The notes below the pieces were generated by a model, which worked only from the letters and a program-made list of their open reading frames with translations, was not told the DNA's origin and searched no databases. 64,000 nt of DNA from assembly GCA_963720545.1 (NCBI GenBank), contig OY970399.1:3200001-3264000 (forward strand), read 5' to 3'. The DNA is from an uncultured Acidobacteriota bacterium. Lineage in GTDB: Bacteria > Acidobacteriota > Vicinamibacteria > Fen-336. Below, piece after piece: positions 2,629 through 42,760 of this stretch (the stretch's first letter is position 1; each line of letters starts with the position of its first letter). Made by a program: the position numbers and the translations under genes.

Positions 2629-2979
2629 GTGCACGCCTTCATCACCGGGATCGCCATCAGGATCGGGCAATATTTCTGGCACCGCAAGCTGCTCATGGCA
2701 GCGAGCGCCATCCTGTTGGTCGAGCTGTTCCTGCGCTACGTCCTGCCGCGCTCGCGGGCGTATTCACTGTGGACCCGGGCTTTCCAGGCGGTCGGCAAGG
2801 TATGGACGGTGGTGCTTCTCTCCATCATCTATCTGTTGTCAGTCGGCCCCATCGCCGTGGTCATGCGTCTCCTGGGCAAGGACATGCTCGACAAGCGGGT
2901 CGAGACGGAACCGTCGTTCTGGCGTCATCACGAACCAGGTCCGTTGCCGCCGGCGGCCGCCGCGCGACACCAGTTCTGA
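2629..2979 (+). CDS. SxtJ-family small membrane protein
   Basis: GTG at 2629 in frame with ORF 2221..2979; hydrophobic segments, LLGKDML..SFW and terminal QF; directly upstream of a carbamoyltransferase. Confidence 0.7.
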   Translation: MHAFITGIAIRIGQYFWHRKLLMAASAILLVELFLRYVLPRSRAYSLWTRAFQAVGKVWTVVLLSIIYLLSVGPIAVVMRLLGKDMLDKRVETEPSFWRHHEPGPLPPAAAARHQF

Positions 2980-2985
2980 GGTGAA

Positions 2986-12420: not shown

Positions 12421-12478
12421 CCGCCGTTCCCCTTCGGCTACCGGCTTGTAGATCGCCTCAATGCCGTATGGATTACCC

Positions 12479-13117
12479 ATGAAGAACTTCCATCCCCTGA
12501 TCCTTTCGAGCCTCCTCTGCGGGAGCGGCAGCGTCGCGTTGGCGCAAGCTCCTGCGGCCAGCCCCCGCCCCGCAGCGGCGGCGCCGGCTTCGGTGCCAGC
12601 CTCGGCACCAGCACCTCGCGATCCGCGCTCCGAATACCGCATCGGCTCCGGCGACGTGCTGCAGGTCTACGTATGGAAGGAACCCGACCTGTCGCGCGAC
12701 GTCACGGTGCGCATGGACGGCAAGATCAGCGTGCCGCTGCTCGGCGATGTCGAGGCGGCGGGGCGCACGCCGCAGCAACTGGGCGCCGAGCTCGCCACCG
12801 GCTGGAGCAAGTTTCTCGCTGCGCCGCAGGTGACGCTGGGCGTCGTCCAGCCGAACAGCACCCGCTTCTACGTTCTGGGCAAGGTCGGAAAGGCGGGCGA
12901 GTTCCCGCTCACCGGACGCGTCACGATCCTGCAGGCGCTGGCGCTCGCCGGCGGCACTTCCGAATACGCCAAGACCGACCAGATCGTGGTGATTCGCCAG
13001 GACCCGGGGCAGGGAGGCCAGACCTTCATCCCGTTCAATTACAAGCGCATCGAGGAAGCCAAGGACATCGCGCAGAACATCCTCCTGCGCCCCGGCGACA
13101 CGATCATCGTCCCGTGA
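12479..13117 (+). CDS. Polysaccharide biosynthesis/export protein (Wza/OPX family, short form with SLBB domain)
   Basis: YRIGSGDVLQVYVWKEPDLSRDVTVRMDGKISVPLLG PES motif; C-terminal LRPGDTIIVP. Confidence 0.92.
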   Translation: MKNFHPLILSSLLCGSGSVALAQAPAASPRPAAAAPASVPASAPAPRDPRSEYRIGSGDVLQVYVWKEPDLSRDVTVRMDGKISVPLLGDVEAAGRTPQQLGAELATGWSKFLAAPQVTLGVVQPNSTRFYVLGKVGKAGEFPLTGRVTILQALALAGGTSEYAKTDQIVVIRQDPGQGGQTFIPFNYKRIEEAKDIAQNILLRPGDTIIVP

Positions 13118-20017: not shown

Positions 20018-20882
20018 GTCGCGCAAGCAGAAGCGCGCCCGCGAGCGCGAGGAATACCGTCACAGCGACGGCGGCACCATCGAGCCGGGCGACCGCGACC
20101 TCCTGGCGCGCGAGCGCCCGACGAGCGACTATGACATCGAGTTCTCGTCGGCAGCCTCGCCCATGGAGGAGGTGAGCTTCGCCACCGTCGCCGAGGTGCG
20201 GCCCCAGCCCGCCTCGCGGCCGGTGGAGTCGGCGCTCGGCGAGAACCACCTCATCTCCGAGGAATTGCGCCTGCTGGTGGTGAAGCTGCGCATCATCGCC
20301 GAGCAGCGGCCGTTTCGCTGCATCGGGATAGCCAGCGCGCTCGGCAACGAGGGCAAGACGACGCTCTCCATCGGCATCGCGGCGGCGCTGGCGCGCGAGA
20401 CCGACACCAACGTGCTGCTGCTCGAGGCCGACCTGCGCCGTCCCGGCATCGAGAACTCGCTCGGCCTGCCGGCGGTGCCCGGCGTCGGCGAATGGATCCA
20501 GGGTGAACCCGGTCCGGTGGCGCTGCGCGTGGTGACTCCGCCCGGATTCTCGGTGCTGAGCGCCGGCAAGACCTCGTTCGAGCGCCCCGAACTCCTGAGC
20601 GGCGGGCGCATGAGCAGCCTGCTGCGCGCCGCGCGCCAGCAGTTCGACTACGTGGTCGTCGACTGTCCGCCGATCCTGCCGGTGGCCGACACCGTCATGC
20701 TGCAGGACCGCCTCGACGGCTTCCTGCTGGTGGTGCGTTCGCGTGCCAGCCCGCGCGAAGCCGTGAAGCGCGCCGCTGCCGCGCTCAAGCCCGACCGCAT
20801 CCAGGGGATCTTGTTCAACGACAGCCAGGAAGCCCTTCACAGCTACGACAAGTACTACTCCCACTACCGCTATCGCCAGTAA
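20010..20882 (+). CDS. CpsD/CapB-family bacterial tyrosine kinase
   Basis: Walker A SALGNEGKTT, EADLRRP, VVVDCPP, C-terminal Tyr cluster SYDKYYSHYRY. Confidence 0.92.
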   Translation: MVESRKQKRAREREEYRHSDGGTIEPGDRDLLARERPTSDYDIEFSSAASPMEEVSFATVAEVRPQPASRPVESALGENHLISEELRLLVVKLRIIAEQRPFRCIGIASALGNEGKTTLSIGIAAALARETDTNVLLLEADLRRPGIENSLGLPAVPGVGEWIQGEPGPVALRVVTPPGFSVLSAGKTSFERPELLSGGRMSSLLRAARQQFDYVVVDCPPILPVADTVMLQDRLDGFLLVVRSRASPREAVKRAAAALKPDRIQGILFNDSQEALHSYDKYYSHYRYRQ

Positions 20883-20892
20883 CCGCGCCGGC

Positions 20893-21672
20893 ATGCTCGG
20901 CGAGGGGGAAGTGGTCTTTGCGTTCGTGCCGCTCGACCATGAACCCGGACCCGCCGAGCACGCCTTGATCGACGCGGAAGAGCGCGCCCGCAGCGAACGC
21001 TTCGTGTACCCCGCGGACCGCCGCCGCTACGTGGTCGCACACGCGGCGTTGCGCCAGTTTCTCGCCGCAACGCTTGGGATCGCGGCCGATGCCGTCCGCT
21101 ACGCCGGAGCAGCGCTCGGCAAGCCGCGGCTGCGTAGCGCCGGCGCCGACGGTCCCTTCTTCAACATGTCGCATTCGGGCGAATTCGCGCTGCTCGCGGC
21201 GACTCGCTGCGGCCCGCTCGGCGTGGACCTCGAGGCGCAGCGCGAGGTGGCCCTGCTTGCCGAGGTCGCCGCAAAAAATTTCTCCGCGGCCGAGTGCCGC
21301 CAGCTCTTCGACCTCCCGCCTGCGGACCATGCTGGGGCATTCCTTCGCTGTTGGACGCGCAAGGAGGCGCTCATCAAGGCCGACGGGCGTGGTTTGTCGC
21401 TGCCGCTCGACAGTTTCGACGTGGAGCTTTGCGGCGGCGCCGGCAACCTCCTGCTCCGGGCTGCCGACGCCGCCGGGCTCGACGGCAGCAAGACTTGGAG
21501 CATCAACGACTTGAAGGCGCCCGTGGGCTACGCCGCCGCCGGCGCGCTCGGCACCGGCGTGTGTCTTCCCGCACGCTGGCGGGAGGTTGTGGGCCCGTCA
21601 CTGGGCGGCGCGAACCCGCACGCTAAGATCGCTTCATCCATGCAACCCAATGGGCCGGGCGGCCGCGCGTGA
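20893..21672 (+). CDS. 4'-phosphopantetheinyl transferase (Sfp type)
   Basis: GKP, FNMSHSG, LGVDLE, WTRKEALIKA motifs. Confidence 0.93.
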   Translation: MLGEGEVVFAFVPLDHEPGPAEHALIDAEERARSERFVYPADRRRYVVAHAALRQFLAATLGIAADAVRYAGAALGKPRLRSAGADGPFFNMSHSGEFALLAATRCGPLGVDLEAQREVALLAEVAAKNFSAAECRQLFDLPPADHAGAFLRCWTRKEALIKADGRGLSLPLDSFDVELCGGAGNLLLRAADAAGLDGSKTWSINDLKAPVGYAAAGALGTGVCLPARWREVVGPSLGGANPHAKIASSMQPNGPGGRA

Positions 21673-21682
21673 GCCGCACAGC

Positions 21683-28003
<6,321 letters not shown>

Positions 28004-31000
28004 GTGAGCTACCAGGACGCCTACGATCCCGAAGAGGGCATCGCCATCATCGGCCTCGCCGGCCGCTTCCCGGGCGCCGCGGACGTGGACGAATTCTGGC
28101 GCAACCTCGAGGCCGGCCGCGAGACGATCGCGAGCTTTGCGCCCGGCGAACTCGAGCCGGCGCTGGGCGAAGAGGCGCCGTCGCGCAACGACCCCGCGTA
28201 CGTGCGCGCGCGCGGCATTCTCGAGGGCATCGACCTCTTCGACGCGTCGTTCTTCGGCATCACGCCGAAGGAGGCCGAGATCCTCGACCCGCAGCAGCGC
28301 GTGTTCATGGAGGCGGCCTGGCACGCCCTCGAGAACGCCGGCTACGACGCACGCGCCTTCGGCGGCGCCATCGGCGTGTTCGCGGGCATGAGCAACAACA
28401 CCTATTTCCGCGAGAACCTCGCGGCGCGTGCCGACGTCACCGACCTGGCGGGCTGGCTGACGACGATGATGGCGAACGAGAAGGACTATCTCGCGACGCG
28501 CATCGCCTACAAGTTCGACCTGCGCGGCCCGGCGCTCAACATCCAGACCGCGTGCTCCACTTCGCTGGTCGCCGTGTGCGCCGCGGTGCAGAGCCTGCTG
28601 ACCTACCAGTGCGACCTGGCGCTTGCCGGCGGCGTCTCGATCACGCTGCCGCAGCGGCGCGGCTACCTGCACCAGGAGGGCGGCATCACCTCGAGCGACG
28701 GCCATTGCCGCACCTTCGACGCGAGCGCCTCGGGCACCGTCTTCAGCAATGGCCTGGGGCTCGTCGCCCTGCGCCGCCTGCGCGACGCGCTCGCCGACCG
28801 CGACACGATCTACGCGGTCATCAAGGGCGCCGGCATGAACAACGACGGCTCGGCGAAGGTGAGTTTCACCGCGCCCAGCGTTTCCGGGCACGCCGCCGTC
28901 ATCGCCCTTGCGCAGGCGCTCTCCGGCATCGACCCGCAGACGATCTCCTACGTCGAGGCGCACGGCACCGCGACACCACTCGGCGACCCGGTCGAGCTTG
29001 CGGGATTGACGCAGGCGTTTCGCGCCGGCGGTGCCGCAGGCACCGGTTTCTGCGCGATCGGCTCGGTGAAGAGCAATGTCGGCCACCTCGACGCCGCCGC
29101 CGGCGTCGCGGGCCTCATCAAGACGGCGCTGGCGCTGCACCACAAGACGCTGCCCGCGAGCCTGCACTTCCAGGCGCCGAATCCCAAGCTCGAGCTCGAG
29201 TCGTCGCCCTTTCGCGTGGTGACGGCGCGCGAGGACTGGCGGCCGGCTCCGGGCTTTCCGCGGCGCGCCGCGGTCAGTTCGTTCGGCGTCGGCGGCACCA
29301 ACGCCCATGTGGTGCTCGAAGAGGCGCCGCCGCACGCAGGAGCCGGCGGCGGGGACAGCGACGGCGAACAACTGCTGGTGCTCTCGGCGCGCTCGCGCGA
29401 AGCGCTCGATCTCGCGACCGGGCACCTCGGCGAGTATCTCGCGAGCCGCAGCGACATTGCGCTCGCCGACGCCGCGTTCACGCTGCAGGCGGGCCGCCGG
29501 CGCTTCAACCACCGGCGCGCGCTGGTGGTGCGCGATCGCGCCGACGCGCTGCAGCAGCTGGCGGCGGCGGGGAAGGCGGTCGCAACCGAGAGCGCCGACG
29601 AGGGCCGCACGGTTTCCTTCCTGTTTCCCGGACAGGGCTCGCAGGCGCCGTCGATGGCGCGCGGGCTGTACGACGGCGACCCGGCGTTTCGCAGCGACAT
29701 CGACGAGTGCGCGCAGGTGCTGCGCGCCGCCCTCGGCTTCGACTTGCGCGAAGTGCTCTATCCGGCGCCGGCACAGGAAGCAGCGGCGGCGGAGAGACTG
29801 CTGCAGACTTCGGTCACGCAGCCGGCGCTGTTTGTCGTCGAGTACGCGCTGGCGCGTGCGTGGCAGCGGCTGGGCGTCGAGCCCGACGGCATGCTGGGCC
29901 ATTCGGTCGGCGAGTACGTCGCCGCCACGCTTGGGTCGGTGTTCACCCGCGACGACGCCCTGCGCCTCGTGGCGCAGCGTGGCCAACTGATGCAGGCGCT
30001 GCCGCCGGGCGCCATGCTCGCCGTGAAGGCCGGCGCCGAAGCCGTGGCGGAGCTGCTGGCCGCGTTCGATGGCGCTGGCGTCGAGATTGCCGCCCGCAAC
30101 GCGCCGCTCCTGACCGTGGTCTCCGGGACGGAAGAGAAGATCGCCGCCTTCGAGGAGCGCGCGCGCGGTGCGGGCCTCGCCGCGAAGCGCCTCGCCACCT
30201 CGCACGCGTTCCACTCGGCGATGATGGAGCCGATCCTCGAAACCTTCACGAAGCTGGTGGCCGCGACGCCGCGCAGCGCGCCGCAGCTGCCATGGGTCTC
30301 GAGCCTCACCGGCACGTGGATCACGACCGCCGAGGCGCAATCGCCGGCGTACTGGGCCGAGCAGCTGCGCCGCCCGGTGTTGTTCGCCACCGGCGCTGCG
30401 ACGCTCCTCGCCGATCCACGGCGGGTCACGCTCGAGGTCGGGCCAGGCCAGCAGCTCACGGGTCTCGTCCGCCAGACGGTTCAAGGCCGCGCCGGTGCGG
30501 CATCGCTTGCGCCTTCGCTCCTCGCGGCGGCCGCTCGCTTGTGGACCGTCGGCGTCGACCTCGACTGGACGGCGTTCCAGCAAGGCGCCGCGCGGCGACG
30601 TGTGCCGCTCCCCGGCTATCCGTTCGAACACAAGCGCTATTGGGTCGAACCCGGGACCCAGGCGCTGCCCCCGGCCGCCGTCGCCTTTTCACAACCGGAA
30701 CAACATGAGGAACAGCAGATGACAGTCACCGCCGTTTCCGCCCCCGCGCGCATCGACGCCCTGGTGGTCCGGCTGCAGGCGCTCTTCTCCGACTTGTCGG
30801 GCATCGACGCCGCGAGCCTGCCGCCGGGGACCGCCTTCCTCGAACTCGGGCTCGACTCGCTGTTCCTCACCCAGGCGGCGACGCTGCTGCAGAAGACCTT
30901 CGGCGTGAAGGTGACGTTCCGCGAGCTGCTCGACGAGCTGTCCACGATCGGCGCGCTGGCCGCCCACCTCGACAAGCTCCTGCCCCCGGACGCGGCGCCC

Positions 31001-32785
31001 GCGGCGCCCGGCACGGCGGCGCATGCAGCTGCGGCAGCGCGTCCCGCGGCCGCCGCCGCGGCGGCGACATTCGCCGGTGCCGGCGGCAGCGCCGTGGAAC
31101 GCCTGATCGCCGACCAGCTCGAGTTGATGCGCCAACAGCTCGAGATGATGCGCGGCGGCGCTCCGGCCCCGGCGGCGGCAGCACGGCCCGCGGAGCTTGC
31201 GCCACAGGCGGCAGCGCCGGCGCGCGTGGTGACGAACGCGCCGCCGATCGCCGCACCGGTTGTCGCCTTCGGCCCGTACCGTCCGCCCGCCAAGGGTCCG
31301 ATGGGCGGCCTCACCGAGCGCCAGCAGCAGGGCCTCGCCGCCATCATCGAGCGCTATACGAAGAAGACCGCGGGCTCGAAGGCGGCGACCGCGAAGAACC
31401 GCCCGCACCTCGCCGATCCGCGCTCGGTTGCCGGCTTCCGCCTCATGTGGAAGGAAATCGTCTACCCGATCGTCACGGTGCGCTCTCTCGGCTCGCGACT
31501 CTGGGACGTGGACGGCAACGAGTACGTGGACCTCACCAACGGCTTCGGCATGATCTTCTTCGGCCACAACCCGCAGTTCGTGCGCGACGCGGTGAAGGCG
31601 CAGATGGACCAGGGCGTCGAGATCGGGCCGCAGTCGCCGCTGGCGGGCGAAGTTGCCGAGCGCGTGGCGCGCATGGTCGGCATGGACCGCGTCGCTTTCT
31701 GCAACACCGGCTCGGAAGCGGTCACCGCGGCGATCCGCCTGGCGCGCACGGTCAGCGGCCGCGACAAGATCGCGATGTTCGCCGGCGCCTACCACGGCAT
31801 CTTCGACGAGGTGCTGGTGCGGCCGGCAGGGCAGCGCTCGATGCCGATCGCCCCGGGCATCCCGGCCGGCATGGTCGACAACGTCGTGATCCTCGACTAC
31901 GGCAGCGACAGCGCGCTGGAATACCTGAAGGCGCACGGCTCGGAGCTGGCTGCGCTGCTGGTGGAGCCGGTGCAGAGCCGGCGCCCAGACCTGCAGCCGC
32001 GCGAGTTCCTGCACGAGGTACGCCGCCTCACCGAGGCCTCGGGCACGGCGCTGGTGTTCGACGAAGTGGTCACCGGCTTCCGCACGCATCCCGGCGGCGC
32101 GCAGGCGATCTTCGGCATCAAGGCCGACATGGCGACCTACGGCAAGGTGATCGGCGGCGGCCTGCCGATCGGCCTGATCACCGGCCGCCGCGAATACATG
32201 GACGCGCTCGACGGCGGCTCCTGGCAGTACGGCGACGATTCGATCCCGGAAGTCGGCGTGACCTTCTTCGCCGGCACCTTCGTTCGTCATCCGTTGGCTC
32301 TGGCTGCGGCCAGGGCGGTGGTGGCGCACCTCGAGGAGGCTGGTCCCGAGCTGCAGCGCGGGCTGAACAAGAAGACCACTGCCTTCGCGGCGCGCCTCAA
32401 CGACCACGCCGCGCAGGTCAACGCGCCGGTGCGCGCCATGCACTTCTCGTCGTGGATCTACGTCAACTTCCCGGCCGACGTGAGCCACTCGGGCCTGTTC
32501 CACTTCCTGATGCGCGCGCGCGGCGTGCACGTGTGGGAGGGCCGCTGCTGGTTCCTGACCACCAGCCACACCGACGCCGACCTCGACTTCGTGTTCGAGG
32601 CGTTCCGCGACACGATCGCCGAACTGCAGGCGGCGGAGTTCCTGCCGGGCGGAGTGAGCGAAGCGCCGCTCGCCGGCGCGCGCCGCGGCAAGGACGCCGC
32701 CGGCCGCGACGCCTGGTTCGTTCCGGATCCGGACCGTCCGGGCAAGTACTTCCAGGTCGAGGAGGGTGCGGCCACCCCTAACTGA
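28004..32785 (+). CDS. Type I PKS module KS-AT-ACP fused to class III PLP aminotransferase
   Basis: KS TACSTS/EAHGT/KSNVGH; AT GHSVG, HAFHS; ACP LGLDSL; aminotransferase NTGSEA, FDEVVTGFR, YGKVIGGG. Confidence 0.93.
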   Translation: MSYQDAYDPEEGIAIIGLAGRFPGAADVDEFWRNLEAGRETIASFAPGELEPALGEEAPSRNDPAYVRARGILEGIDLFDASFFGITPKEAEILDPQQRVFMEAAWHALENAGYDARAFGGAIGVFAGMSNNTYFRENLAARADVTDLAGWLTTMMANEKDYLATRIAYKFDLRGPALNIQTACSTSLVAVCAAVQSLLTYQCDLALAGGVSITLPQRRGYLHQEGGITSSDGHCRTFDASASGTVFSNGLGLVALRRLRDALADRDTIYAVIKGAGMNNDGSAKVSFTAPSVSGHAAVIALAQALSGIDPQTISYVEAHGTATPLGDPVELAGLTQAFRAGGAAGTGFCAIGSVKSNVGHLDAAAGVAGLIKTALALHHKTLPASLHFQAPNPKLELESSPFRVVTAREDWRPAPGFPRRAAVSSFGVGGTNAHVVLEEAPPHAGAGGGDSDGEQLLVLSARSREALDLATGHLGEYLASRSDIALADAAFTLQAGRRRFNHRRALVVRDRADALQQLAAAGKAVATESADEGRTVSFLFPGQGSQAPSMARGLYDGDPAFRSDIDECAQVLRAALGFDLREVLYPAPAQEAAAAERLLQTSVTQPALFVVEYALARAWQRLGVEPDGMLGHSVGEYVAATLGSVFTRDDALRLVAQRGQLMQALPPGAMLAVKAGAEAVAELLAAFDGAGVEIAARNAPLLTVVSGTEEKIAAFEERARGAGLAAKRLATSHAFHSAMMEPILETFTKLVAATPRSAPQLPWVSSLTGTWITTAEAQSPAYWAEQLRRPVLFATGAATLLADPRRVTLEVGPGQQLTGLVRQTVQGRAGAASLAPSLLAAAARLWTVGVDLDWTAFQQGAARRRVPLPGYPFEHKRYWVEPGTQALPPAAVAFSQPEQHEEQQMTVTAVSAPARIDALVVRLQALFSDLSGIDAASLPPGTAFLELGLDSLFLTQAATLLQKTFGVKVTFRELLDELSTIGALAAHLDKLLPPDAAPAAPGTAAHAAAAARPAAAAAAATFAGAGGSAVERLIADQLELMRQQLEMMRGGAPAPAAAARPAELAPQAAAPARVVTNAPPIAAPVVAFGPYRPPAKGPMGGLTERQQQGLAAIIERYTKKTAGSKAATAKNRPHLADPRSVAGFRLMWKEIVYPIVTVRSLGSRLWDVDGNEYVDLTNGFGMIFFGHNPQFVRDAVKAQMDQGVEIGPQSPLAGEVAERVARMVGMDRVAFCNTGSEAVTAAIRLARTVSGRDKIAMFAGAYHGIFDEVLVRPAGQRSMPIAPGIPAGMVDNVVILDYGSDSALEYLKAHGSELAALLVEPVQSRRPDLQPREFLHEVRRLTEASGTALVFDEVVTGFRTHPGGAQAIFGIKADMATYGKVIGGGLPIGLITGRREYMDALDGGSWQYGDDSIPEVGVTFFAGTFVRHPLALAAARAVVAHLEEAGPELQRGLNKKTTAFAARLNDHAAQVNAPVRAMHFSSWIYVNFPADVSHSGLFHFLMRARGVHVWEGRCWFLTTSHTDADLDFVFEAFRDTIAELQAAEFLPGGVSEAPLAGARRGKDAAGRDAWFVPDPDRPGKYFQVEEGAATPN

Positions 32786-32812: not shown

Positions 32813-33673
32813 TCACAACAGCTCGACCAACGGCAGGACGACTTGCATGACGCTCAACACGGCGCCGATCATTTTGCTTTTGAGGGACCAGCCGCTGGCA
32901 GCCATCGAGGCGCAGTAGTCCTTCTTGAAGTTGGCCCAGTTGGCCTGGTTCGCGCCGTTGATCGATACCGTGATCGAAGGGCTGAGGATGCGCGCGGTGT
33001 GCCACCAGCCAGACGGTACGAACAGCGTCTCGCCCGCGTGGAGCTGGAAACGGATGCCCTGCGCCTTGTCGAAGAGCGGAAACTTCGCCAGGTCGGGCTG
33101 CATGCCGTCTCCCACCTGCGACTCGTTCCCGTACTTGCTGGTCGTGTTCGGATACACGAATGGCGTCTGATCCGGTGCGTACGCCACGTACTCCTTGTCG
33201 CCGAACACCTGCATCAGGAAGGCGTGCGTGTGGTAACCGTCGTAGTGCAGGACGTGGAACCTTGCACCCGGCCCGCCGATGAAGATCTCCTTGTAAGTCT
33301 GGTCGACTCGCGAAGGAAACAAGGCACTCGCCAACCAGTTGGGCTCGGTGCAGTCGGGCATCGGTGAAATGTCCTTGTGCAACTCCTTCGGCCACTCGGA
33401 GAGCTTCTGGTTGCGCAGATAAGGGGCTGGTTGGCTTGGGCTCGAGGCCATGACCTGGTCGATCAGGTCGTGAAGCGGCATTTCCTTGCCATCGACGCGC
33501 ACCTGCAGGTCGCCGTGGTTGACCTTGAAGAAATCCGGTGTCCAGCGGCCGAGCGCCGGCCAATGCCGGATCGCGTCGGTGATGATGACGGGCCGCAGTG
33601 GCAGCAGGTATTGGAGGATGAAGTCCTCATGGCGCATGCCGCTGCGCCGGTCAATCGCGTTGTCCACCAACAT
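32813..33673 (-). CDS. JmjC/cupin-like Fe(II)/2-oxoglutarate oxygenase
   Basis: RPVII..WPAL..WT N-terminus; HYD...GWWH facial triad; GETLFVPSGWWH. Confidence 0.88.
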   Translation of the reverse strand: MLVDNAIDRRSGMRHEDFILQYLLPLRPVIITDAIRHWPALGRWTPDFFKVNHGDLQVRVDGKEMPLHDLIDQVMASSPSQPAPYLRNQKLSEWPKELHKDISPMPDCTEPNWLASALFPSRVDQTYKEIFIGGPGARFHVLHYDGYHTHAFLMQVFGDKEYVAYAPDQTPFVYPNTTSKYGNESQVGDGMQPDLAKFPLFDKAQGIRFQLHAGETLFVPSGWWHTARILSPSITVSINGANQANWANFKKDYCASMAASGWSLKSKMIGAVLSVMQVVLPLVELL

Positions 33674-33712: not shown

Positions 33713-34621
33713 TCAGCCGGTGTCGACACCCGCCAATGCCGGGCGCGCGGCGGCGTCGGCGTCGACGAAGCCGCGCATCCAATCGACGACTACGCTCGTG
33801 AGCCGGTCCGCTGCGTCGAGCGGAGCAAATGTGTGGTTCGTGCCACCGATGACCGCAACCTGCAACGCGGGGCCTGTCACCAGGCGCCGGGAGAGAAGCT
33901 TGCGGAAGTTATGGTACGACACGTCGTGTCTGGAGTACACGAGGAGAATGCGCCGCGTGCGGCAAGCTTCCTGAATGTCCCTGACCACGTCCTGCCAGGC
34001 CTGGTCTTCGACCAGGCGGTCCTGGCTGATGGGAGTTTCCATCCCCTCCGGTGGCGCCGGCGGCGCCGACCAGACGCTTGTCAGCCCCCTGACGATCAGG
34101 CCCGGATCGCGGAAGGCGCGGCTCCAGGTTCGCGCGTAGAACGCCCGCGCGACCTTGCGGCGCAGTTCGTAGGAAGGGCTGTCGGCCGAGTAGAGCTCGG
34201 CAAGGACGGCGCCGACGACCCGGGGTTCGACGCGCACGATCGCCAGGCCGTTGTCGGCGCCCGAGCAGATGCCGAAGAGGGCGAACTTGCGGATGCCGAG
34301 CCGTTCGTCCAGGAGTCGCATCGCCGCGCGCACTTCGCCGAGAACGCGCTCGCCGTGGCCGGCGTCCGTTGCCGCAAACTCGCTCTCACCGATCCCCGAG
34401 AGGTCGAAACGCAGGGACGCGAACCCGTGCTCGGCCAGGCTTCGCGCCAGCGTGACATGGCAGCGGTTCGGCCCGACGCGATGCACGATGCCGGCGTTCA
34501 GGAAGATCATGGCGACGTCGCGGCAAGGTTGGCCCGGCTCGAGGAGGATCCCCGACAGGGCGTGCCGGTCGCCGAACGCCACGGGCGTTTCCCGGATCAC
34601 GTCGCGTCGGCGCTCAGCCAT
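33713..34621 (-). CDS. Alpha/beta-hydrolase-fold protein with Cys at nucleophile elbow (GICSG)
   Basis: LNAG..HRVGPNR, LRFDLSGIGES, GICSG, TNHTF; resembles EPS/exosortase-associated hydrolase 1 type. Confidence 0.8.
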   Translation of the reverse strand: MAERRRDVIRETPVAFGDRHALSGILLEPGQPCRDVAMIFLNAGIVHRVGPNRCHVTLARSLAEHGFASLRFDLSGIGESEFAATDAGHGERVLGEVRAAMRLLDERLGIRKFALFGICSGADNGLAIVRVEPRVVGAVLAELYSADSPSYELRRKVARAFYARTWSRAFRDPGLIVRGLTSVWSAPPAPPEGMETPISQDRLVEDQAWQDVVRDIQEACRTRRILLVYSRHDVSYHNFRKLLSRRLVTGPALQVAVIGGTNHTFAPLDAADRLTSVVVDWMRGFVDADAAARPALAGVDTG

Positions 34622-35397
34622 TTGACGATCTGCGTGAGGGTGACGGCAGGCACCACGCCCTGGACCGGGTCTTCATCGTCCTTCCAGACCGACACCGGGC
34701 AGGTCGCTTCCTCGACCACCGCGGCGAGCTTTGCCCCCCTGACCGTGGCTGCTCCCGCCGTCGCCGCGCGCGTGTCCGCGTCGATGACCAGCGCGCGTTC
34801 GGCAAGGCGGCGATCGAACGTCTGCAGGGTGAAACCGGCGATCGACTGCCGCATGGCGACCCCGAGGGAAAGGCCGAACATATCCCAGGTTGGGTCCTGC
34901 GGACGCGCGGCGCGCGAAGTGACCCATGGCCGATGGTCGATCCAGGCCTGATGCGTGGCCCAGAGCTCGTCGAGATAGGCCGAACCGTCCCAGACGGGTT
35001 CCCACAGCACCAGGCTTCGCACGTCGCGGCGGGCTCGCGCCGCGAGGCACCCGATGGCCGTGCCCAGGCGCATGCCGACGATCGCCAACCGGGAGACTCC
35101 ACTTTCCTTCTTCAGGATGTCGAGCGCGGCCTGCGTGTCCGACACCCAGTTCTCCAGGCTCGCGTCGGCAAGCGCGCCGGCCGAGTCGCCGGTGCCGCGA
35201 TAGTCGAACCGCAGCACGTGGCAGCCTGCCCGCGCCAACTGCAAACCGAGCCGCCGCAGCGCCCGGTGCGCGCGAAGGTACTCGGCTCCAAAAGGCTGGC
35301 AGACCACGATGCCGAGATCGCGGTCCGCTGAAGACAGGGGCGGCTGGTGAACGCCGAACAGGCGCCCGTCCGCCGGCCCGAAATGGAAGGTTTTCAT
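34597..35397 (-). CDS. Alpha/beta-hydrolase-fold protein with Arg at elbow (GMRLG)
   Basis: ATG 35397 overlaps NRPS stop (ATGA); PFGAE, LRFDYRGTGDSAG, GMRLG, LWEPV.DG..YL; resembles EPS/exosortase-associated hydrolase 2 type. Confidence 0.8.
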   Translation of the reverse strand: MKTFHFGPADGRLFGVHQPPLSSADRDLGIVVCQPFGAEYLRAHRALRRLGLQLARAGCHVLRFDYRGTGDSAGALADASLENWVSDTQAALDILKKESGVSRLAIVGMRLGTAIGCLAARARRDVRSLVLWEPVWDGSAYLDELWATHQAWIDHRPWVTSRAARPQDPTWDMFGLSLGVAMRQSIAGFTLQTFDRRLAERALVIDADTRAATAGAATVRGAKLAAVVEEATCPVSVWKDDEDPVQGVVPAVTLTQIVKWLSADAT

Positions 35398-38300
35398 CCC
35401 GATCGGCTGCGCCGGAGGAGTCGGTCGAGAAAACCGCCGCCATCGGCCGGCGCGTTCGCGGGGGGCTTTGAAACCACCTTGGGCTCGGCCACACCAACGG
35501 TCTGCAGGGAGGCGGCGATCTGCCCCAACGTCTGGAAGATGAGGTCGCGGGTGTGAAGCTTCACGCCGGTGAGCGCGTGGATGCGTTGGGCAGCGTTGAT
35601 GGCCAGGAGGGAGTGGCCGCCCAGGTCGAAGAAATTGTCCTCCGGCCCGACAGTCTCCACTTCGAGGAGTTCGCTCCACACGCCACCGACCAGCCGTTCG
35701 GCGTCGGTGCGCAGCGGCGCCGGCGGCACGCGGCCGCCCGCATGGACGGCGTCGGGCGCGGGCAGTTGCGCCTTGTCGATCTTGCCGTTGGGGGTCAGGG
35801 GCAGCCTGGGAAGAACCACGATCGAGGCGGGCACCATGTACTCGGGGAGCTGCGCGCGCAGCAGCTTGCGCAACTCGTCGATGCCGCCGCGCGATTCGTC
35901 GGCGGCCACATAGGCGACGAGACGCTTGTCGCCAGGCCGATCCTCGCGCACCATGACCGCCGCTTCGCGGATGCCCGGTTGCTGGCCGAGGACCGCCTCG
36001 ATCTCGCCCGGCTCGATGCGGAATCCGCGGATCTTCACCTGCTGGTCGATGCGGCCGAGGTATTCGAGATCGCCGCTCTCGAGGCGCCGGGCAAGGTCTC
36101 CCGAACGGTACAGGCGCCCGGAGCCGGCGAACGTGTCGGGGACGAAGCGCTGCGCCGTGAGCTCCGGCCTGTTCAGGTACCCCGCCGCGACGCCAGCTCC
36201 GCCGACGACGATCTCGCCCGGGACACCCTGCGGCACGGGCTCGCCATCGCCGTCGAGAAGGTAGACACGCAAGTCGGGGATCGGTTCGCCGATGACGCTG
36301 CCGGCGCCCGACTCGAGGTCGGCCAGCCTGATGGGTCGATAGGTCACGTGCACGGTTGTTTCGGTGATCCCGTACATGTTCACCAGGAGCGGCCGGTCCT
36401 CACCGTGCCGCTCGAACCAGGGACGCAGGCTCTGCAGCTCCAGCGCCTCGCCGCCGAAGATGACGTAGCGCAGCTTCAAGGGTGTCACCGTCTCGCTGCC
36501 GAGGTCGGCCTGGATGAGCTGTCGGAACGCCGATGGTGTCTGGTTCAGGACGGTGACACCCTCCGCTGCGAGCAGCTCCAGGAACGACTCCGGCGCACGG
36601 CTGACCCACTGCGGAACGATCACGACGCGTCCGCCGTAGAGCAGCGCGCCCCACAATTCCCATACGGAAAAGTCGAAGGCGTACGAGTGAAACAGCGTCC
36701 AGACGTCGTCCGCGTCGAAGTGAAACCAGTCGTTCGTCGCTTCCAACAGCCGGGCGACGTTGTGGTGGGTGACCCTGACGCCCTTGGGCTTGCCGGTGGA
36801 TCCCGACGTGTAGATGACGTACGCCAGGTCGTCGGGAGCCGAACCGGACGCCGGGATGTCGTCAGCGGCCTCGATCTCGTCGATGAGCGCCACCGTCACC
36901 GTGGCGCCTGCGAAATCATCGGCCAGGGCACGCTCCGTCACGGCTACACGGACGCCGGCGTCCTCGAGCATGAACGTGATCCGGTCGCGCGGATAGGCGG
37001 GATCCATGGGCAGGTATGCGCCACCCGCCTTGAGGATGCCGAGGATGCCGACGGCGACGGACAACGAACGCTCGGTGCGCAAGGCAACCAGGTGGTTGCG
37101 CTCGACGCCCATCTCCCGGAGCCGGGCAGCGAGTCCGTTCGCGCGCCGGTTCAACTCCGCGTAGGTCATGCTGTCGCCGTCGCACGTGGCGGCGACCGCC
37201 GTGGGGCGTGCCCGCGCAACAGCTTCGAACCGTTCATGGAGGCTGCGGCCAGGCGGGGAAGCCACTCGCGGGTTGAAGCGGCCCAGGACATCGGTGCGCT
37301 CGTTCGACGTGAGCAGGCTCAAGGAAGAGTTGACGGCGTCGGGGTTCGCGACGATCGACCGGAGCAGCGTCTCGTAGTGCGCGAGCCAGCGCTTGATGGC
37401 CGCGCCGGTGAACAGGTCGGAGTTGTACGCGCATTCGACGAGCGCGTCCTTGCCGCTGTCCACGACGTTCACCGCGAGCTCGAAGTTCGTGTAGGCCTTC
37501 GGCACCGTCAGTGACGCGATCGCGACGTCCTCGAAGTCGAACGGGGCGCCGATCTTGTCGATGTTGAAGGTGACGGCCACCAGCGGCGTGCGGCTCGCAT
37601 CGCGCGGGATTCTCAGGCGGCGGACCAGGCTGCCGAACGTCAGGTGCGGATGTTCCTGCGCATCCGCCAGGGCCAGGCGAACCGCGCGCAGGTGGGCGAG
37701 GAAAGGCTGGGTTGGATCGACGCGGACGCGCAGCGGCAGCGTGTGGACACAGTGCCCGACGAGCCGCGAGTCGTCGAGAAAGGCCTGGCCGGCGAGCGGG
37801 ATTCCAACGACGAAGTCGTTCTGCCGGGAAAGACGATGGACCAGGAGCTCGAAGGCGGCGAGCAGCGTCGCGAACAGCGTTGCGCCGGCCTTGGCGCCCG
37901 CGCCCTTCAGCGCCGCGTAGAGCTGCGGGTCGATGCGGTGCGTTTCCTGGGCGCCACGGAACGTCTTGGCCTCGGGTCGCGCCCGTGACAGCGGCAGGTC
38001 CAGCACGGGCGCGCCGTCCGCGAATTGGGCCGCCCAGTAGTCCTCGTCGGCCTTCCGGCCTGCGGCGGCGGACGCACCCGCCTGTTCGGTGACGTAGGCC
38101 GCATAGGAGGGCGCTGGCGGCAGTTGCGCGTCGATGCCGGAGCGATCGGCCGCGTAACAGCGGGCGAGATCGCTGAACAGCACGCTCGACGACCAGCCGT
38201 CGCACACGATGTGGTGAACCGTCAGCACGAAGCGGTTGCTGCGTTCGCCCTCGCGGACGACGAGAGCCCGAATCAGCGGGCCGCGCTCGAGGTCGAAGGA

Positions 38301-38681
38301 CGTTTCGCACTCGCGTTCCACGAGGGAATCGATCTCTCGCGCGCGTGCCTCGGTATCGAGCCCCGACATGTCGAGGACCGGCATCTCGACCGAAAACGCC
38401 GGCCGGAGCGTCTGGCCCGAGCCGTCCGCGGAGAGGACGGCTCGCAGCGCGGCGTGACGGGAGACGACCTGTGCGAGGGCCGCGCGCAGGGACTCGGTGC
38501 GCAATTCGCCCTCGAGGGTGAACACGAAGCACTGGTTGTACGAGCGGTTGGCGTCCTCGTCCATCGCCGCCGCGGTCCACATTTCGGCCTGCGGCTCGGT
38601 GAGTGGCAAGGTGTCTGGCTGGCTCTGCGGCGCAAACGGGTCGAAATCGACCGGTACGAGGTTGTGGCCGGTGTCAGTCAT
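35394..38681 (-). CDS. NRPS, domain order C-A(Thr)-T, no thioesterase
   Basis: HHIVCDGWS (C); YTSGSTGKPKG, FDFSVWE, NMYGITETTVH, NGKIDK (A); GGHSL (T). Confidence 0.93.
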   Translation of the reverse strand: MTDTGHNLVPVDFDPFAPQSQPDTLPLTEPQAEMWTAAAMDEDANRSYNQCFVFTLEGELRTESLRAALAQVVSRHAALRAVLSADGSGQTLRPAFSVEMPVLDMSGLDTEARAREIDSLVERECETSFDLERGPLIRALVVREGERSNRFVLTVHHIVCDGWSSSVLFSDLARCYAADRSGIDAQLPPAPSYAAYVTEQAGASAAAGRKADEDYWAAQFADGAPVLDLPLSRARPEAKTFRGAQETHRIDPQLYAALKGAGAKAGATLFATLLAAFELLVHRLSRQNDFVVGIPLAGQAFLDDSRLVGHCVHTLPLRVRVDPTQPFLAHLRAVRLALADAQEHPHLTFGSLVRRLRIPRDASRTPLVAVTFNIDKIGAPFDFEDVAIASLTVPKAYTNFELAVNVVDSGKDALVECAYNSDLFTGAAIKRWLAHYETLLRSIVANPDAVNSSLSLLTSNERTDVLGRFNPRVASPPGRSLHERFEAVARARPTAVAATCDGDSMTYAELNRRANGLAARLREMGVERNHLVALRTERSLSVAVGILGILKAGGAYLPMDPAYPRDRITFMLEDAGVRVAVTERALADDFAGATVTVALIDEIEAADDIPASGSAPDDLAYVIYTSGSTGKPKGVRVTHHNVARLLEATNDWFHFDADDVWTLFHSYAFDFSVWELWGALLYGGRVVIVPQWVSRAPESFLELLAAEGVTVLNQTPSAFRQLIQADLGSETVTPLKLRYVIFGGEALELQSLRPWFERHGEDRPLLVNMYGITETTVHVTYRPIRLADLESGAGSVIGEPIPDLRVYLLDGDGEPVPQGVPGEIVVGGAGVAAGYLNRPELTAQRFVPDTFAGSGRLYRSGDLARRLESGDLEYLGRIDQQVKIRGFRIEPGEIEAVLGQQPGIREAAVMVREDRPGDKRLVAYVAADESRGGIDELRKLLRAQLPEYMVPASIVVLPRLPLTPNGKIDKAQLPAPDAVHAGGRVPPAPLRTDAERLVGGVWSELLEVETVGPEDNFFDLGGHSLLAINAAQRIHALTGVKLHTRDLIFQTLGQIAASLQTVGVAEPKVVSKPPANAPADGGGFLDRLLRRSRSG

Positions 38682-38914: not shown

Positions 38915-39880
38915 TCATTCCGCGCGTTCGAGCCAGATTTCCCGCCAATACATCAGCTCGCCGCGCGGGCAGTCGCCCAGTTCGTCCTCGCAAAGACAGT
39001 CCCAGTCGTTCAGCTTCTTCGTCCCGGTGCGGACGTTGCGCAACAGGACTGTATCGCGCATTTCCCGCATTTCGCCGGTCGTCTCGTTGATGATCCGGTC
39101 AACCCGCTCCCTGACCTCGGCGCGCGCCCCGCAGTACCTGGTCATTTCGCGGCAGATGCCCATGCCCCGGTTGCTCCGCTTCTGATTCAGGGTCGCTGTG
39201 ATCTCGGCGCGGCTCTTGATTCGGACCGGGTCTCCGGTGATCAGGCCGAGCGAATGGCTCGGCGTGTTCTTGTTGGGTCCGCGGAGCACCCGCTTGCCGT
39301 TCATCGCGCGCTGCAAGCGCAGCGACGACCAGGTGAACAGCACCTTCAGCATCTCCACCAACGAACGATCGCCGTTGAGGATTTCCCGAAGAGCTACGCG
39401 CAACATCCACGGGCTCTTTTTCCCGGGGAAAGCTTCCGTGGCATTCAGCAGCTGGGTGGACTGACAGAAATAGCGCCTCTCATCCGTCCTGGTCTTCAGG
39501 CGAGCGCGCAACGCTTCGGTTCCGGGTTCGGACGCGGGTGTCGGCGTTTCGCCCGCACCGAGCGGCCGCAACCACGCTTCCTTCCAGAAGATCTTGCAGG
39601 CGCGCTTGCAACCATCGTGGCCGCTGCCGTCGCACCGTGACCCCGTCAGGACGACCACGTCGTTCGCGGCAAAACGCCGGTTGGGATATTCGGGAGGCGC
39701 GACCGCCACGCACGTCTTCTCCACCCGATGCTCGACGCGCAGGGGCTTGCCGCACCAATCGAGCATTTCAGGCATGAAGGGCAGGCCGTCCAGGGTGCCG
39801 TCGGCATCCAGGGTCTTCAGGATCTCCTCGGGAGAGCGAACCACCACTGGGTCCCCTGCGCGGAGTCTGTTGCGTTTCAT
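38915..39880 (-). CDS. Hypothetical protein with two internally repeated Cys-containing domains
   Basis: L.GD.V.v.S..EI..TL...EM...CG...V..RV...C...C...W.E.WL appears twice. Confidence 0.75.
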   Translation of the reverse strand: MKRNRLRAGDPVVVRSPEEILKTLDADGTLDGLPFMPEMLDWCGKPLRVEHRVEKTCVAVAPPEYPNRRFAANDVVVLTGSRCDGSGHDGCKRACKIFWKEAWLRPLGAGETPTPASEPGTEALRARLKTRTDERRYFCQSTQLLNATEAFPGKKSPWMLRVALREILNGDRSLVEMLKVLFTWSSLRLQRAMNGKRVLRGPNKNTPSHSLGLITGDPVRIKSRAEITATLNQKRSNRGMGICREMTRYCGARAEVRERVDRIINETTGEMREMRDTVLLRNVRTGTKKLNDWDCLCEDELGDCPRGELMYWREIWLERAE

Positions 39881-39948: not shown

Positions 39949-41514
39949 TCACTCTCTTGCCAGCCCGACGCGCGCGAGGATTTTCGCACGGAGCGACGAA
40001 TCCAGGGCGAACCGCCAGTACAGGGGGACCAGGCTCACCAGCGCCCACGCCGCGGCAACTCCGAGCATGCCCCACGGTCTCGGTATCGGCAAATGATGGA
40101 TGAAAAACAGGCCTAAAGCATAGGGCGTGCAGTAGATGAACGGCTTGGCCAGCGATGACTTGTAGTAGCTAAACACGTTGAAGTGCAGGACGCGCGCCGC
40201 GGCGATCGGCGTGACCGTGCCCACAAAGACGGTGCGTGCCAGCGACACGGCGAGCGCCGCGCCCGTGAGCCCCCAGCCAAGCCGCACGGTGAACAGGTAG
40301 CTGAGCCCGAGGCCGGTGGCCGCGGCGAGCAGCGATTGCTTCGCGAACTGGCCGTGGCGGTTGAGCCCGGCGAGCACTGCCCACACCGGCTTGAACACGA
40401 TGCCCACCAGATTGCCGAGCGCCAGCGCCGCAACCAGGTAACCGTGCGGCGAATACGCCGGCCCCATCCAGGCCCAGAGCAGGTCGTCACCGAGGATCGC
40501 GAAGCTGGTCATCAGAGGCACGACGAAGAATGCGGTGGTGCGCGTCGCCGAAAAGAGCAGATCGCGCACGGCAGTCATGTCGCCGCGGCCCTGCAGCGAG
40601 CTGGCCGTCGGCGTCAGGACGAACGCGAACTTGTCGGCGAGGCTCTCTGTGTGGCGAATGATTGCCCACGGCCGCGCATAGAGGGCGAGCTGCGAGACGC
40701 CGGCGGCGGCAGTGACCATGAGGCTGTTGCCCTGGATCAGGATCAGCGACGAGAGTTGCACGAGGCTGGTCTTGAGGCCGTACGCGAAGGTCTCCTTCGC
40801 CTGCCCGCGGTCGAAGAGCGCGAGCGACACGCGCATCTCCGGACAGACCCTGTAGGCGAGCCTGGCGCGGAACAGCTCGGTGAGGATGGTGATGACGAGC
40901 GTCGCCACGCCAAGGCCGACGATGCCGTAGCCGAGCATCAGCACGATGATGTTGGCGATCACCTGCACGGCGTACGATCCGGCCGCGAGGGCGTTGTGCA
41001 GGTCCCAGCGGTGGCAGCCGGTGATGACGCCGCGGTAGAGGTCGAACGCCATCTGCACGGCAAGGCTCAGGCCGAGCAGCGCCACCAGGACCTGCGCCCG
41101 GCCCACGTCCTCGCCGAGCTGCGCGCCGAACCAGTGTGGCACGCCCCAGGTGGCGGCCAGGGTAAAGAGGGTAACGAGCAGCGCGACGCCGAGCTGCAGC
41201 ATCATCGTCGACGAGGTGACCCGGCGCAGCCCCGCGACGTCGTGCACCGCCCGGTGCTTGGCGACGTAACGGTTCACGGACGAGCCGATGCCGACCTGGG
41301 CGATGCCGAAGTAGGCGACCAGGTTCCAGGCGAAGTCCCAGAGGCCGAGCCCGGCCTGGCCGACCTTGCGGTCGATGATCGGCGGCACGATGAAGCCGCC
41401 GACGATGAAGACGAGGTAGCCGCCCCAGCTCGTCAGGACGTTGCGCAGCAGGCGGCTGCGGCCGGTGAGATCGATGGGGCCGGTCTCGATCCGCGCCGGC
41501 GGCGGATCGCTCAT
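39949..41514 (-). CDS. Oligosaccharide flippase (Wzx/MOP superfamily)
   Basis: Multiple TM helices; RLLRNVLTSW..., GIGSSVNRYVA; start uncertain (41514 or 41574). Confidence 0.85.
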   Translation of the reverse strand: MSDPPPARIETGPIDLTGRSRLLRNVLTSWGGYLVFIVGGFIVPPIIDRKVGQAGLGLWDFAWNLVAYFGIAQVGIGSSVNRYVAKHRAVHDVAGLRRVTSSTMMLQLGVALLVTLFTLAATWGVPHWFGAQLGEDVGRAQVLVALLGLSLAVQMAFDLYRGVITGCHRWDLHNALAAGSYAVQVIANIIVLMLGYGIVGLGVATLVITILTELFRARLAYRVCPEMRVSLALFDRGQAKETFAYGLKTSLVQLSSLILIQGNSLMVTAAAGVSQLALYARPWAIIRHTESLADKFAFVLTPTASSLQGRGDMTAVRDLLFSATRTTAFFVVPLMTSFAILGDDLLWAWMGPAYSPHGYLVAALALGNLVGIVFKPVWAVLAGLNRHGQFAKQSLLAAATGLGLSYLFTVRLGWGLTGAALAVSLARTVFVGTVTPIAAARVLHFNVFSYYKSSLAKPFIYCTPYALGLFFIHHLPIPRPWGMLGVAAAWALVSLVPLYWRFALDSSLRAKILARVGLARE

Positions 41515-41572
41515 CGGCGACTGCGGCGTCAGCGGCTCGCTCACCGGCGGGCCCGGTATATCATCCTTCCCC

Positions 41573-42760
41573 ATGCCTATCGGAACCCCGCTTCACAGCC
41601 GCACATCACAGTTGTGCGAGAGCCTCAACTGGCGCGACTGGGCCGGTTACTTCGCAGTCAGCGCCTATGAAGCGACCCACGAACACGAGTACAACGCCAT
41701 CCGGCAGGCTTCGGCGCTCATCGACATCTCGCCGCTGTTCAAGTATCTCGTCACCGGAACCGACGCGGCAAGGCTCATCGACCGCGTGATCACCCGCGAC
41801 GCGCACAAGATCTCCGTGGGTCAGGTCGTCTATACCCACTGGTGCGACGGTGACGGCAAGGTGATCGATGACGGCACTGTGGCGCGGCTCGAGGACGGAC
41901 TTTACAGGTGGACCGCGGCGGAGCCTACTCTGCGCTGGATCCGCCAGAACGCAACCGGCCTCGACGTCAACGTCGAGGACGTCTCGGAACGCATCGCCGC
42001 GCTCGCGCTGCAGGGGCCCACTTCGAAGGCGCTGCTCGCGAGCTGCGCCGAGGGCGACATCGCCGGCCTCAAGTATTTCCGCGTGATGAAGTCGCGCATC
42101 GGCGGCATCGACGTGCAGGTCTCGCGCACCGGCTACACCGGCGACCTCGGCTACGAGATCTGGTCGGCGGCCGGAGACGGGCCGCGCGTCTGGGACGCGC
42201 TGATGGACGCGGGCCGCGCCTTCGACATCACGCCCACCGGCATCCTGGCTCTCGACGTCGCGCGCATCGAGGCCGGCATGATCATGCTCGACGTCGACTA
42301 CACCGGTGCCAAGAAGGCGATGATTCCCTCGCAACGCTACACGCCGTACGAAATCGGCCTCGGCCGGCTCGTCAAGCTCGACAAGGGCCCCTTCATCGGC
42401 CAGCAGGCGCTGCAGCGTGAAGCAAAGCGCGGCCCGGCGCGCAGCCTCGTGGGAATAGAGGTGGACTGGCACGACGTCGAGAGCCTGCACGACAAGGCCG
42501 GCCTGCCGCCGCAGATCGCGGCCACCGCTTCGCGCGCCTCGATCCCGCTCTACCAGGACTCGGTGCAGGTGGGCCGCGTGACGAGCAGCGCCTGGTCGCC
42601 GCTCCTCAAGAAGCTCATCGGCCTCGCGTCGGTGCGCACCGACATGGCAAAGCCAGGCCAGCGGCTCGACATGGAACTCACGGTCGACCACAAGCGATTG
42701 CTGGCGGGCGCCACGGTAGCAAACCTGCCGTTCTTCGACCCGCCGCGCAAGAAGGCCTGA
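41573..42760 (+). CDS. Aminomethyltransferase (GcvT/DmdA) family protein
   Basis: GTPLH, DISPLFK, GKVIDDG, LQGP, SRTGYTGDLGYE, ARIEAG, PFFDP motifs. Confidence 0.9.
   Translation: MPIGTPLHSRTSQLCESLNWRDWAGYFAVSAYEATHEHEYNAIRQASALIDISPLFKYLVTGTDAARLIDRVITRDAHKISVGQVVYTHWCDGDGKVIDDGTVARLEDGLYRWTAAEPTLRWIRQNATGLDVNVEDVSERIAALALQGPTSKALLASCAEGDIAGLKYFRVMKSRIGGIDVQVSRTGYTGDLGYEIWSAAGDGPRVWDALMDAGRAFDITPTGILALDVARIEAGMIMLDVDYTGAKKAMIPSQRYTPYEIGLGRLVKLDKGPFIGQQALQREAKRGPARSLVGIEVDWHDVESLHDKAGLPPQIAATASRASIPLYQDSVQVGRVTSSAWSPLLKKLIGLASVRTDMAKPGQRLDMELTVDHKRLLAGATVANLPFFDPPRKKA

Follow-up and report, generated by a model that had tools for sequence, protein, structure and literature searches.

In a 64,000-nucleotide stretch of DNA from an uncultured Acidobacteriota bacterium (Vicinamibacteria, Fen-336; GenBank assembly GCA_963720545.1, contig OY970399.1, positions 3,200,001 to 3,264,000; this whole stretch is called the window below), two overlapping genes, ORF-A and ORF-B, code for alpha/beta-hydrolase fold proteins and directly follow the gene of a nonribosomal peptide synthetase (NRPS) that ends in a carrier (T) domain and has no thioesterase (TE) domain. 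We propose, with a probability of roughly 0.55, that the two proteins would act as a two-part off-loading acyltransferase that moves the finished chain of the NRPS/polyketide synthase (PKS) assembly line onto a sugar of a Wzx-dependent polysaccharide. Leaving the nature of the acceptor aside, the comparisons make it quite probable that the pair takes the chain off the line. The place of the pair at the end of TE-less lines is well supported; an ORF-A/ORF-B complex and the transfer of the chain are what we infer.

The pair in the position of a thioesterase

On the minus strand, the ATG of ORF-A and the stop codon of the synthetase gene NRPS1 overlap as ATGA, and ORF-B overlaps ORF-A in turn, as had been described in an earlier reading of the window made from its letters alone (the sequence-only reading). 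ORF-B may start either at GTG 34600 (295 aa), which gives a 4-nt GTGA overlap with the stop codon of ORF-A, or at ATG 34621 (302 aa), which gives a 25-nt overlap; its homologues align from residue 1 or 2 of the 295-aa version. ORF-A and ORF-B are distant paralogues (28% identity, 109 residues).

No TE domain was found in the three megasynthases of the window (NRPS1, NRPS2 and a PKS with an aminotransferase domain) or in the rest of the window, and all five matches of the genome to PF00975, the type I/II thioesterase profile, lie elsewhere. Neither ORF-A nor ORF-B matches this profile. The pair has the alpha/beta-hydrolase fold and the position after the last T domain in common with PF00975 thioesterases but differs from them in carrying Cys and Arg for Ser and in being always paired in the loci examined. 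With regard to the order of the line, seven of the ten best matches to the condensation (C) domain of NRPS1 come straight after an aminotransferase domain of the same polypeptide, the T domain of NRPS1 is most like terminal T domains, and in an alphaproteobacterial metagenome-assembled genome (L015/L136) the same parts are colinear, have glycosyltransferases upstream and end in homologues of ORF-A and ORF-B (A and B below). NRPS1 is therefore probably the last module, and the line would run NRPS2, PKS-aminotransferase, NRPS1.

To place the pair among its relatives, the genomes of GTDB were scanned with the B alignment, which gave 225 relatives spread over many phyla, and the best 80 were kept as loci, selected on B alone. 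An A gene adjoined B in 80/80 loci, in tandem in 59 and divergently in 21. Among the tandem loci, A stood directly after a T-ending gene (2- to 47-aa tail) in 29 and was fused in frame behind T in 14, with 16 arranged otherwise (several of these at contig ends); thus a terminal carrier precedes, or is fused to, A in 43/59. NRPS or PKS domains were found in the flank of 67/80 loci. The 74 longer relatives of A comprised 69 A-B fusions, four NRPS-T-A proteins and one A-B fusion with a GT4 glycosyltransferase. The family is large: a search with the ORF-B profile returned 4567 representatives at 50% identity (E<=1e-30; canonical and fused relatives, described below, included). Among the 150 best, nine long proteins were examined, namely four A-B, one double A-B, two B-Wzx, one C-A-T-B (P0442) and one B with an unassigned tail. 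The existence of both NRPS-T-A and NRPS-T-B fusions, together with the place of the pair and the lack of a TE in the megasynthases, supports the sequence-only reading in placing the pair where a TE would stand. What the A-B loci share is a carrier protein.

The same genome holds a second Arg/Cys pair outside the window (G000:C1:3836442-3838138, L082), which is 34-35% identical to the first and lies in convergent orientation to a long PKS run of several genes that ends in a C-A-T-C-A-T NRPS without TE. This pair, too, flanks a T-terminated PKS/NRPS line, which supports the TE-position reading. An EamA transporter gene lies between that NRPS and the pair, and a type II TE is encoded at 3793167. 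Within its own lineage the pair is patchy, since only 3/40 relatives hold it at strong scores.

Several loci show further layouts. Two complete pairs lie inside 9 kb in L098 (G028:C195), each behind an A-T protein and one with A fused to T. In a divergent layout (L020, L027, L028, L032, L041, L047, L049, L051, L053, L055, L062, L068, L077 and others, mostly Myxococcota), A heads a megasynthase of the order A-T-KS-AT-T-aminotransferase-C-A, and B lies with a Wzx flippase gene on the other strand. In Acidimicrobiia (L014, L040, L059, L060, L073), and also in L143, upstream of L017, genes for an ornithine cyclodeaminase, an acyl-CoA dehydrogenase, a stand-alone adenylation (A) domain and an acyl carrier protein (ACP) adjoin the pair, a set known from pyrrole-2-carboxyl starter pathways; the five from Acidimicrobiia have A and the NRPS in one fused protein. 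On a plasmid of Azospirillum sp. B510 (L152:3356-10942), an A-B-sized fusion is the last gene of an operon that also codes for an ACP, an acyl-CoA dehydrogenase, an amino acid-ACP ligase, a DUF1839 protein and a GH2 glycosidase, a makeup from which the pair would also serve a tRNA-synthetase-like carrier system. Two long proteins carry unassigned parts: P0329, a B with a 360-aa C-terminal domain that has no Pfam match at 1e-4 (3-member cluster), and P0368, with a tail after its Wzx half.

Predicted active-site residues and family of the pair

The sequence-only reading placed an Arg at the nucleophile elbow of ORF-A (GMRLG) and a Cys, with a downstream His (NHTF), at that of ORF-B (GICSG), and all of these were located in the sequence. 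Both elbows align with GLSMG, the nucleophile motif of MHETase 9pjb. In the AlphaFold models of ORF-B and ORF-A (pLDDT 88.5 and 92.8), C112 lies between strand 105-111 (beta5) and helix 113-124, and R110 between strand 103-109 (beta5) and helix 111-120; both residues line up with the nucleophile Ser of the esterase 9pjb. The statement that neither protein has a GxSxG motif holds for both elbows but fails literally, because ORF-A has GDSAG at residues 70-74; as an active site this motif was rejected, being a conserved loop after beta4 that aligns with the same loop in 9pjb.

Conservation of these positions was read from 200 B halves, made up of 112 close homologues of the split type (taken from 120 listed among 312 matches), 21 canonical TIGR03100 proteins above cut-off (from 300 scored genomes) and 67 fused halves. 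The elbow Cys was kept in 198/200 (112/112 split, 21/21 canonical, 65/67 fused) and the position of His256 in 197/200 (112/112, 19/21 with two truncated, and 66/67, respectively). Similarly, the elbow Arg was kept in 199/206 A halves (116/118, 19/20 and 64/68 per set), and Glu/Asp39 was almost as constant. That C112 and H256 are invariant in the 112 split homologues and R110 is near-invariant in the A homologues (115/118 by a separate count) indicates that the motifs are more than chance. As acid of ORF-B, the candidates are Asp226, which matches the canonical and fused sets, and residue 135, which is D, N or E in the split set; the ORF-B of the window carries both Asp226 and Glu135.

We considered whether the Ser that directly follows Cys112 could be the nucleophile, which would make ORF-B a plain serine thioesterase. 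Ser113 is present in 101/112 split homologues; the position, however, is Asp in 21/21 canonical proteins, and among the fused halves Ser stands in 48/67, with many Gly or Ala in the others, whereas the Cys before it is kept throughout the sets at the rate given above. In addition, Ser113 opens the helix in the model, whereas Cys112 registers with the esterase Ser. Given the constant Cys and the variable neighbour, we reject Ser113 as nucleophile and attach almost no credence to a serine thioesterase; from model and alignment, Cys112 is the likely nucleophile, in agreement with the sequence-only reading, which had named a modelled Ser nucleophile as the outcome that would speak against it. A Cys nucleophile is by itself not decisive between transfer and hydrolysis. 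ORF-A has no nucleophile, and its 206 homologous halves show no conserved C-terminal His (beyond residue 200, His never exceeds 30% in any column). With its constant Arg, it is therefore predicted to be non-catalytic yet under selection, and the earlier suggestion that it is probably non-catalytic stands.

The pair had also been likened to the hydrolase 1/2 pair of exosortase-associated loci, and a profile search had been named as the check. In NCBIfam the best match of ORF-A is indeed TIGR03101 (hydr2_PEP) and that of ORF-B TIGR03100 (hydr1_PEP), the exosortase A system-associated hydrolases 2 and 1, both hypothetical equivalogs. At 90 bits against a cut-off of 202.75 and 75.1 bits against 168.45, respectively, both scores remain below half of the curated cut-offs, so the likeness stands for the best matches and not for membership. 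In Pfam, the pair matches Hydrolase_4/Abhydrolase_1, and models and Foldseek agree on the alpha/beta-hydrolase fold. The two kinds of pair share the gene order carrier, Arg protein, Cys protein, as well as the Arg elbow, the Cys, the His and an occasional A-B fusion; like the TIGR03101/TIGR03100 genes, the window pair is an Arg-elbow gene adjoining a Cys-elbow/His gene behind a carrier in a polysaccharide locus. They differ in the Cys elbow, which is GxCSG in the lineage of the window and GLCDA/G in TIGR03100, and in the carrier, which is the terminal NRPS T domain at the window pair and a stand-alone ACP in the TIGR03100/TIGR03101 loci (an ACP gene directly upstream of the hydrolase gene or genes in 11/21 canonical TIGR03100 flanks, of which 1.5 kb was read).

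A quick tree was built with IQ-TREE from 61 sampled rows, of which 25 were split, 14 canonical and 20 fused; the 2 outgroup rows were weak matches in the relatives G031 and G036 that are ordinary serine hydrolases. In this tree, ORF-B grouped with the split set (SH-aLRT 95), outside the canonical TIGR03100 branch (SH-aLRT 100). The genome (94.8% complete) has no match to the exosortase profiles PF09721 or TIGR03109. Membership in TIGR03100/TIGR03101 and a link to exosortase are rejected on the scores, the branch and the lack of an exosortase match in the genome, and from the same evidence the A-B pair is, by sequence, a sister lineage of the exosortase-associated hydrolase pair, of a named but uncharacterised kind. 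Searches of the PDB by sequence and by fold returned only generic esterases as solved relatives, and in the ESM Atlas ORF-B matched only unnamed hydrolase clusters.

A role has been guessed for one protein with the TIGR03100 annotation: in PMC3584217, Bcam1334, from the Burkholderia cenocepacia exopolysaccharide cluster Bcam1330-1341 (biofilm exopolysaccharide, EPS), is suggested to be a quality-control hydrolase. The table rows seen in that source list no NRPS in the cluster. Burkholderia A-B fusions of about 600 aa are among the longer relatives of ORF-A. By extension, ORF-A and ORF-B might be an editing thioesterase or a hydrolase acting as polysaccharide esterase or in quality control, which does not take the finished chain, and the lack of a type II TE in the window leaves room for editing. 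Against such a role, a separate type II TE is already present in 7/80 loci and in the second cluster of the genome, and in 14 loci the in-frame fusion behind T stands with no other release domain; we regard it as very improbable.

The possible acceptor of the chain

How the transfer might proceed can be set out in four steps. From domain homology, the line would pass its chain from NRPS2 through the PKS-aminotransferase to NRPS1, where it would end on the T domain. ORF-A, free of nucleophile and His, would then dock on T and/or shape the acceptor site, docking being suggested by relatives that carry A fused behind T, in the TE position. As predicted from the fold and the conserved residues, the chain would next pass as a thioester to Cys112, with His256 and either Asp226 or Glu135 as the activating residues. 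In the last and weakest step, which draws on fusions and gene context, a lipid-linked sugar repeat would resolve the acyl-enzyme through one of its hydroxyl or amino groups on the cytoplasmic side, before the flip by Wzx, and the product would be a glycan decorated with a peptide/polyketide.

Transfer from a carrier to a free acceptor has precedents in two serine enzymes, CouN7 and Pks13-TE, the former with an acceptor that we take to be the sugar noviose. CouN7 of coumermycin biosynthesis moves an acyl group from a carrier domain to a free acceptor (PMC8748450), and Pks13-TE releases its acyl chain onto polyols, preferably trehalose (PMC9210659). Both are single catalytic units without an Arg pseudo-enzyme partner, and the comparison with the window pair is one of how they work, not of sequence.

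An alternative in which no free acceptor is needed is a shuttle between carrier domains, as in CmaE and SyrC, which have a Cys nucleophile. For CmaE, SyrC homologues and LgnA, an acyl-enzyme relay from one T domain to another is described in PMC8748450; these proteins deliver to a T domain and act alone, unlike the window pair, and the likeness is again by description and not by sequence. ORF-B could, for instance, load the last module of NRPS2, whose C-A-T-E-like-C-T layout has no A domain for its last T, and an NRPS of Variovorax likewise ends in C-T. Most related lines, however, consist of complete modules, with the pair close to the last T; only one ACP per locus was seen in the 1.5-kb flanks read of the canonical TIGR03100 loci; and fusions behind a terminal T and to Wzx suit off-loading better. 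A shuttle is accordingly judged improbable.

For off-loading onto a sugar, the evidence is in the neighbours and the fusions. In addition to the glycan genes in Table 1, the window codes for two GT4 glycosyltransferases, a deacetylase, an asparagine synthase and a carbamoyltransferase; at a distance of 22-25 kb upstream of its start, the genome also encodes Wzy and a priming transferase. In the cultured Variovorax paradoxus VAI-C, where the pair is INQ48_42270/42275, one run reads NRPS/PKS-NRPS-PPTase-A-B-wza-wzc-sugar transferase, where PPTase is the 4'-phosphopantetheinyl transferase, and a Wzx gene stands directly after B in many loci. The two B-Wzx fusions are 58% identical to each other across 800 aa, and the Wzx of the window is 42-44% identical to the Wzx half of both; the other Wzx type found in the loci gave no match. 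The cluster of the A-B-GT4 fusion has five members, of which three are full-length. Glycan genes were detected in 32/80 loci, compared with 11/204 20-kb tiles of the genome of the window, and in 37/80 after Pfam additions.

The same observations have to be weighed against release by the pair alone onto water or a small non-sugar nucleophile, which would give a free (lipo)peptide and make the glycan genes mere neighbours or later modifiers. The TE-position evidence fits this equally well, and the nearest solved structures are ordinary esterases. Further, glycan genes were not seen in the stored flanks of 43/80 loci (after Pfam additions) or in 5/11 loci extended by 20-50 kb (58 genes scanned with Pfam, 179 unlabelled), and local queries found no EPS export or flippase genes around the second pair of the genome. 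On the other side, B-Wzx and A-B-GT4 fusions exist, the Wzx gene is often the next gene behind B, and plain hydrolysis leaves the Arg partner, present at every locus, unexplained. On balance, we consider release onto water or a small acceptor rather unlikely.

Besides these missing glycan genes, a number of points count against transfer to a sugar. The glycan enrichment is inflated, since 6/12 queries came from the same loci, the control is one genome, and about 15 of the 80 loci are one related Myxococcota-type cluster. Each B-Wzx fusion comes from one contig, and the two are probably one evolutionary event; a Caballeronia fusion has neither carrier nor glycan genes next to it. The catalytic acid of the B halves is not conserved at one position, and the helical insert of ORF-B fits solved structures poorly (TM about 0.5-0.58), so that the acceptor site could not be read from structures. 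The A-less module that ends NRPS2 could need a shuttle. Finally, no functional or biochemical study of the A-B pair was found in the open literature, a search that left subscription papers mostly uncovered; the accessible parts of a Collimonas paper (PMC8313283) and an Actinoplanes paper (PMC13390465) deal with another subject. Overall, gene context and the Wzx and GT4 fusions, which are its basis, make a sugar acceptor plausible, and the acceptor may differ between cluster types.

Other genes of the window and meaning of the pair

Table 1. Positions of the pair, the assembly line and the glycan genes in the window
Feature	Position in window	Strand
ORF-A, alpha/beta-hydrolase fold, 266 aa, Arg at nucleophile elbow; TIGR03101-like but below cut-off; predicted to be the non-catalytic partner	34597..35397	-
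GMRLG elbow of ORF-A, residues 108-112 (Arg110 codon 35070-35068)	35062..35076	-
ORF-B, alpha/beta-hydrolase fold, Cys112/His256; predicted catalytic half (TIGR03100-like, below cut-off)	33713..34600	-
GICSG elbow of ORF-B, residues 110-114 (Cys112 codon 34267-34265)	34259..34273	-
NHTF motif of ORF-B, residues 255-258 (His256)	33827..33838	-
NRPS1, C-A-T, 38-aa tail, no TE; probably the last module	35394..38681	-
NRPS1 residues 1000-1057, the terminal carrier (T) domain; putative donor for ORF-B	35511..35684	-
PKS, KS-AT-ACP-aminotransferase, no TE	28004..32785	+
NRPS2 (probable start 21683), C-A-T-E-like-C-T, last module without A domain, no TE	21587..28003	+
4'-Phosphopantetheinyl transferase (PPTase)	20893..21672	+
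Probable tailoring hydroxylase (JmjC/cupin-like oxygenase), next gene after ORF-B	32813..33673	-
321-aa conserved protein upstream of NRPS1, no Pfam/NCBIfam family	38915..39880	-
Wzx-type flippase	39949..41574	-
Chain-length regulator of Wzz/Wzc type with a kinase-like partner; the PPTase-NRPS2-PKS run follows directly downstream	18488..20882	+
Wza-type polysaccharide export protein	12461..13117	+

As to what the line makes, the two A domains of the window (in NRPS1 and NRPS2) carry one identical code, presumably of Thr type. A code could be read in 36 related terminal modules, which fell into groups of 21, 8 and 7 (other), the first two being of types that we take to be Gly and Asn-like; with codes this mixed, the pair does not go with one particular residue. 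NRPS2 opens with a C domain without an evident donor and, after its E-like domain, closes with the A-less C-T, a layout also seen in L136. The 321-aa protein upstream of NRPS1 has a 56% identical homologue that precedes the colinear NRPS-PKS line in L136/L015, and its matches in the ESM Atlas are unnamed clusters at 0.96-0.97; it may supply a starter or tailoring function that the line lacks.

In the glycan island, an SxtJ-like small gene and the carbamoyltransferase gene lie at window positions 2629-4731 (+). At G000:C1:3182514-3187105, 13-17 kb upstream of the window, are two genes with N-termini that are, we assume, carbamoyl-phosphate synthase-like. We also considered the Cys-Gly side chain of the Leptothrix/Sphaerotilus sheath polysaccharide as a product of such lines, an idea for which neither a literature search nor the available portion of PMC11412304 gave support.

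Soil and sludge genomes commonly hold assembly lines that lack a release domain, and what these lines make cannot be predicted. The comparisons brought out B-Wzx, A-B-GT4 and T-B fusions, and the Wzx of the window belongs to the fused type. If the pair is the release step, it would be a marker for this class of clusters and would give a first function to TIGR03100/TIGR03101; if the acceptor is a sugar repeat, NRPS/PKS chemistry would be joined to polysaccharide decoration. Somewhat more tentatively, at odds a little short of even, the pair could be the prototype of a widespread transacylase made of two parts, in which a Cys-His enzyme and an Arg pseudo-enzyme that reads the carrier would replace the TE and graft NRPS/PKS products onto lipid-linked repeats before Wzx. 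Should this transacylase reading be true, many TE-less 'orphan' lines across phyla would yield decorated surface polysaccharides and not diffusible metabolites.

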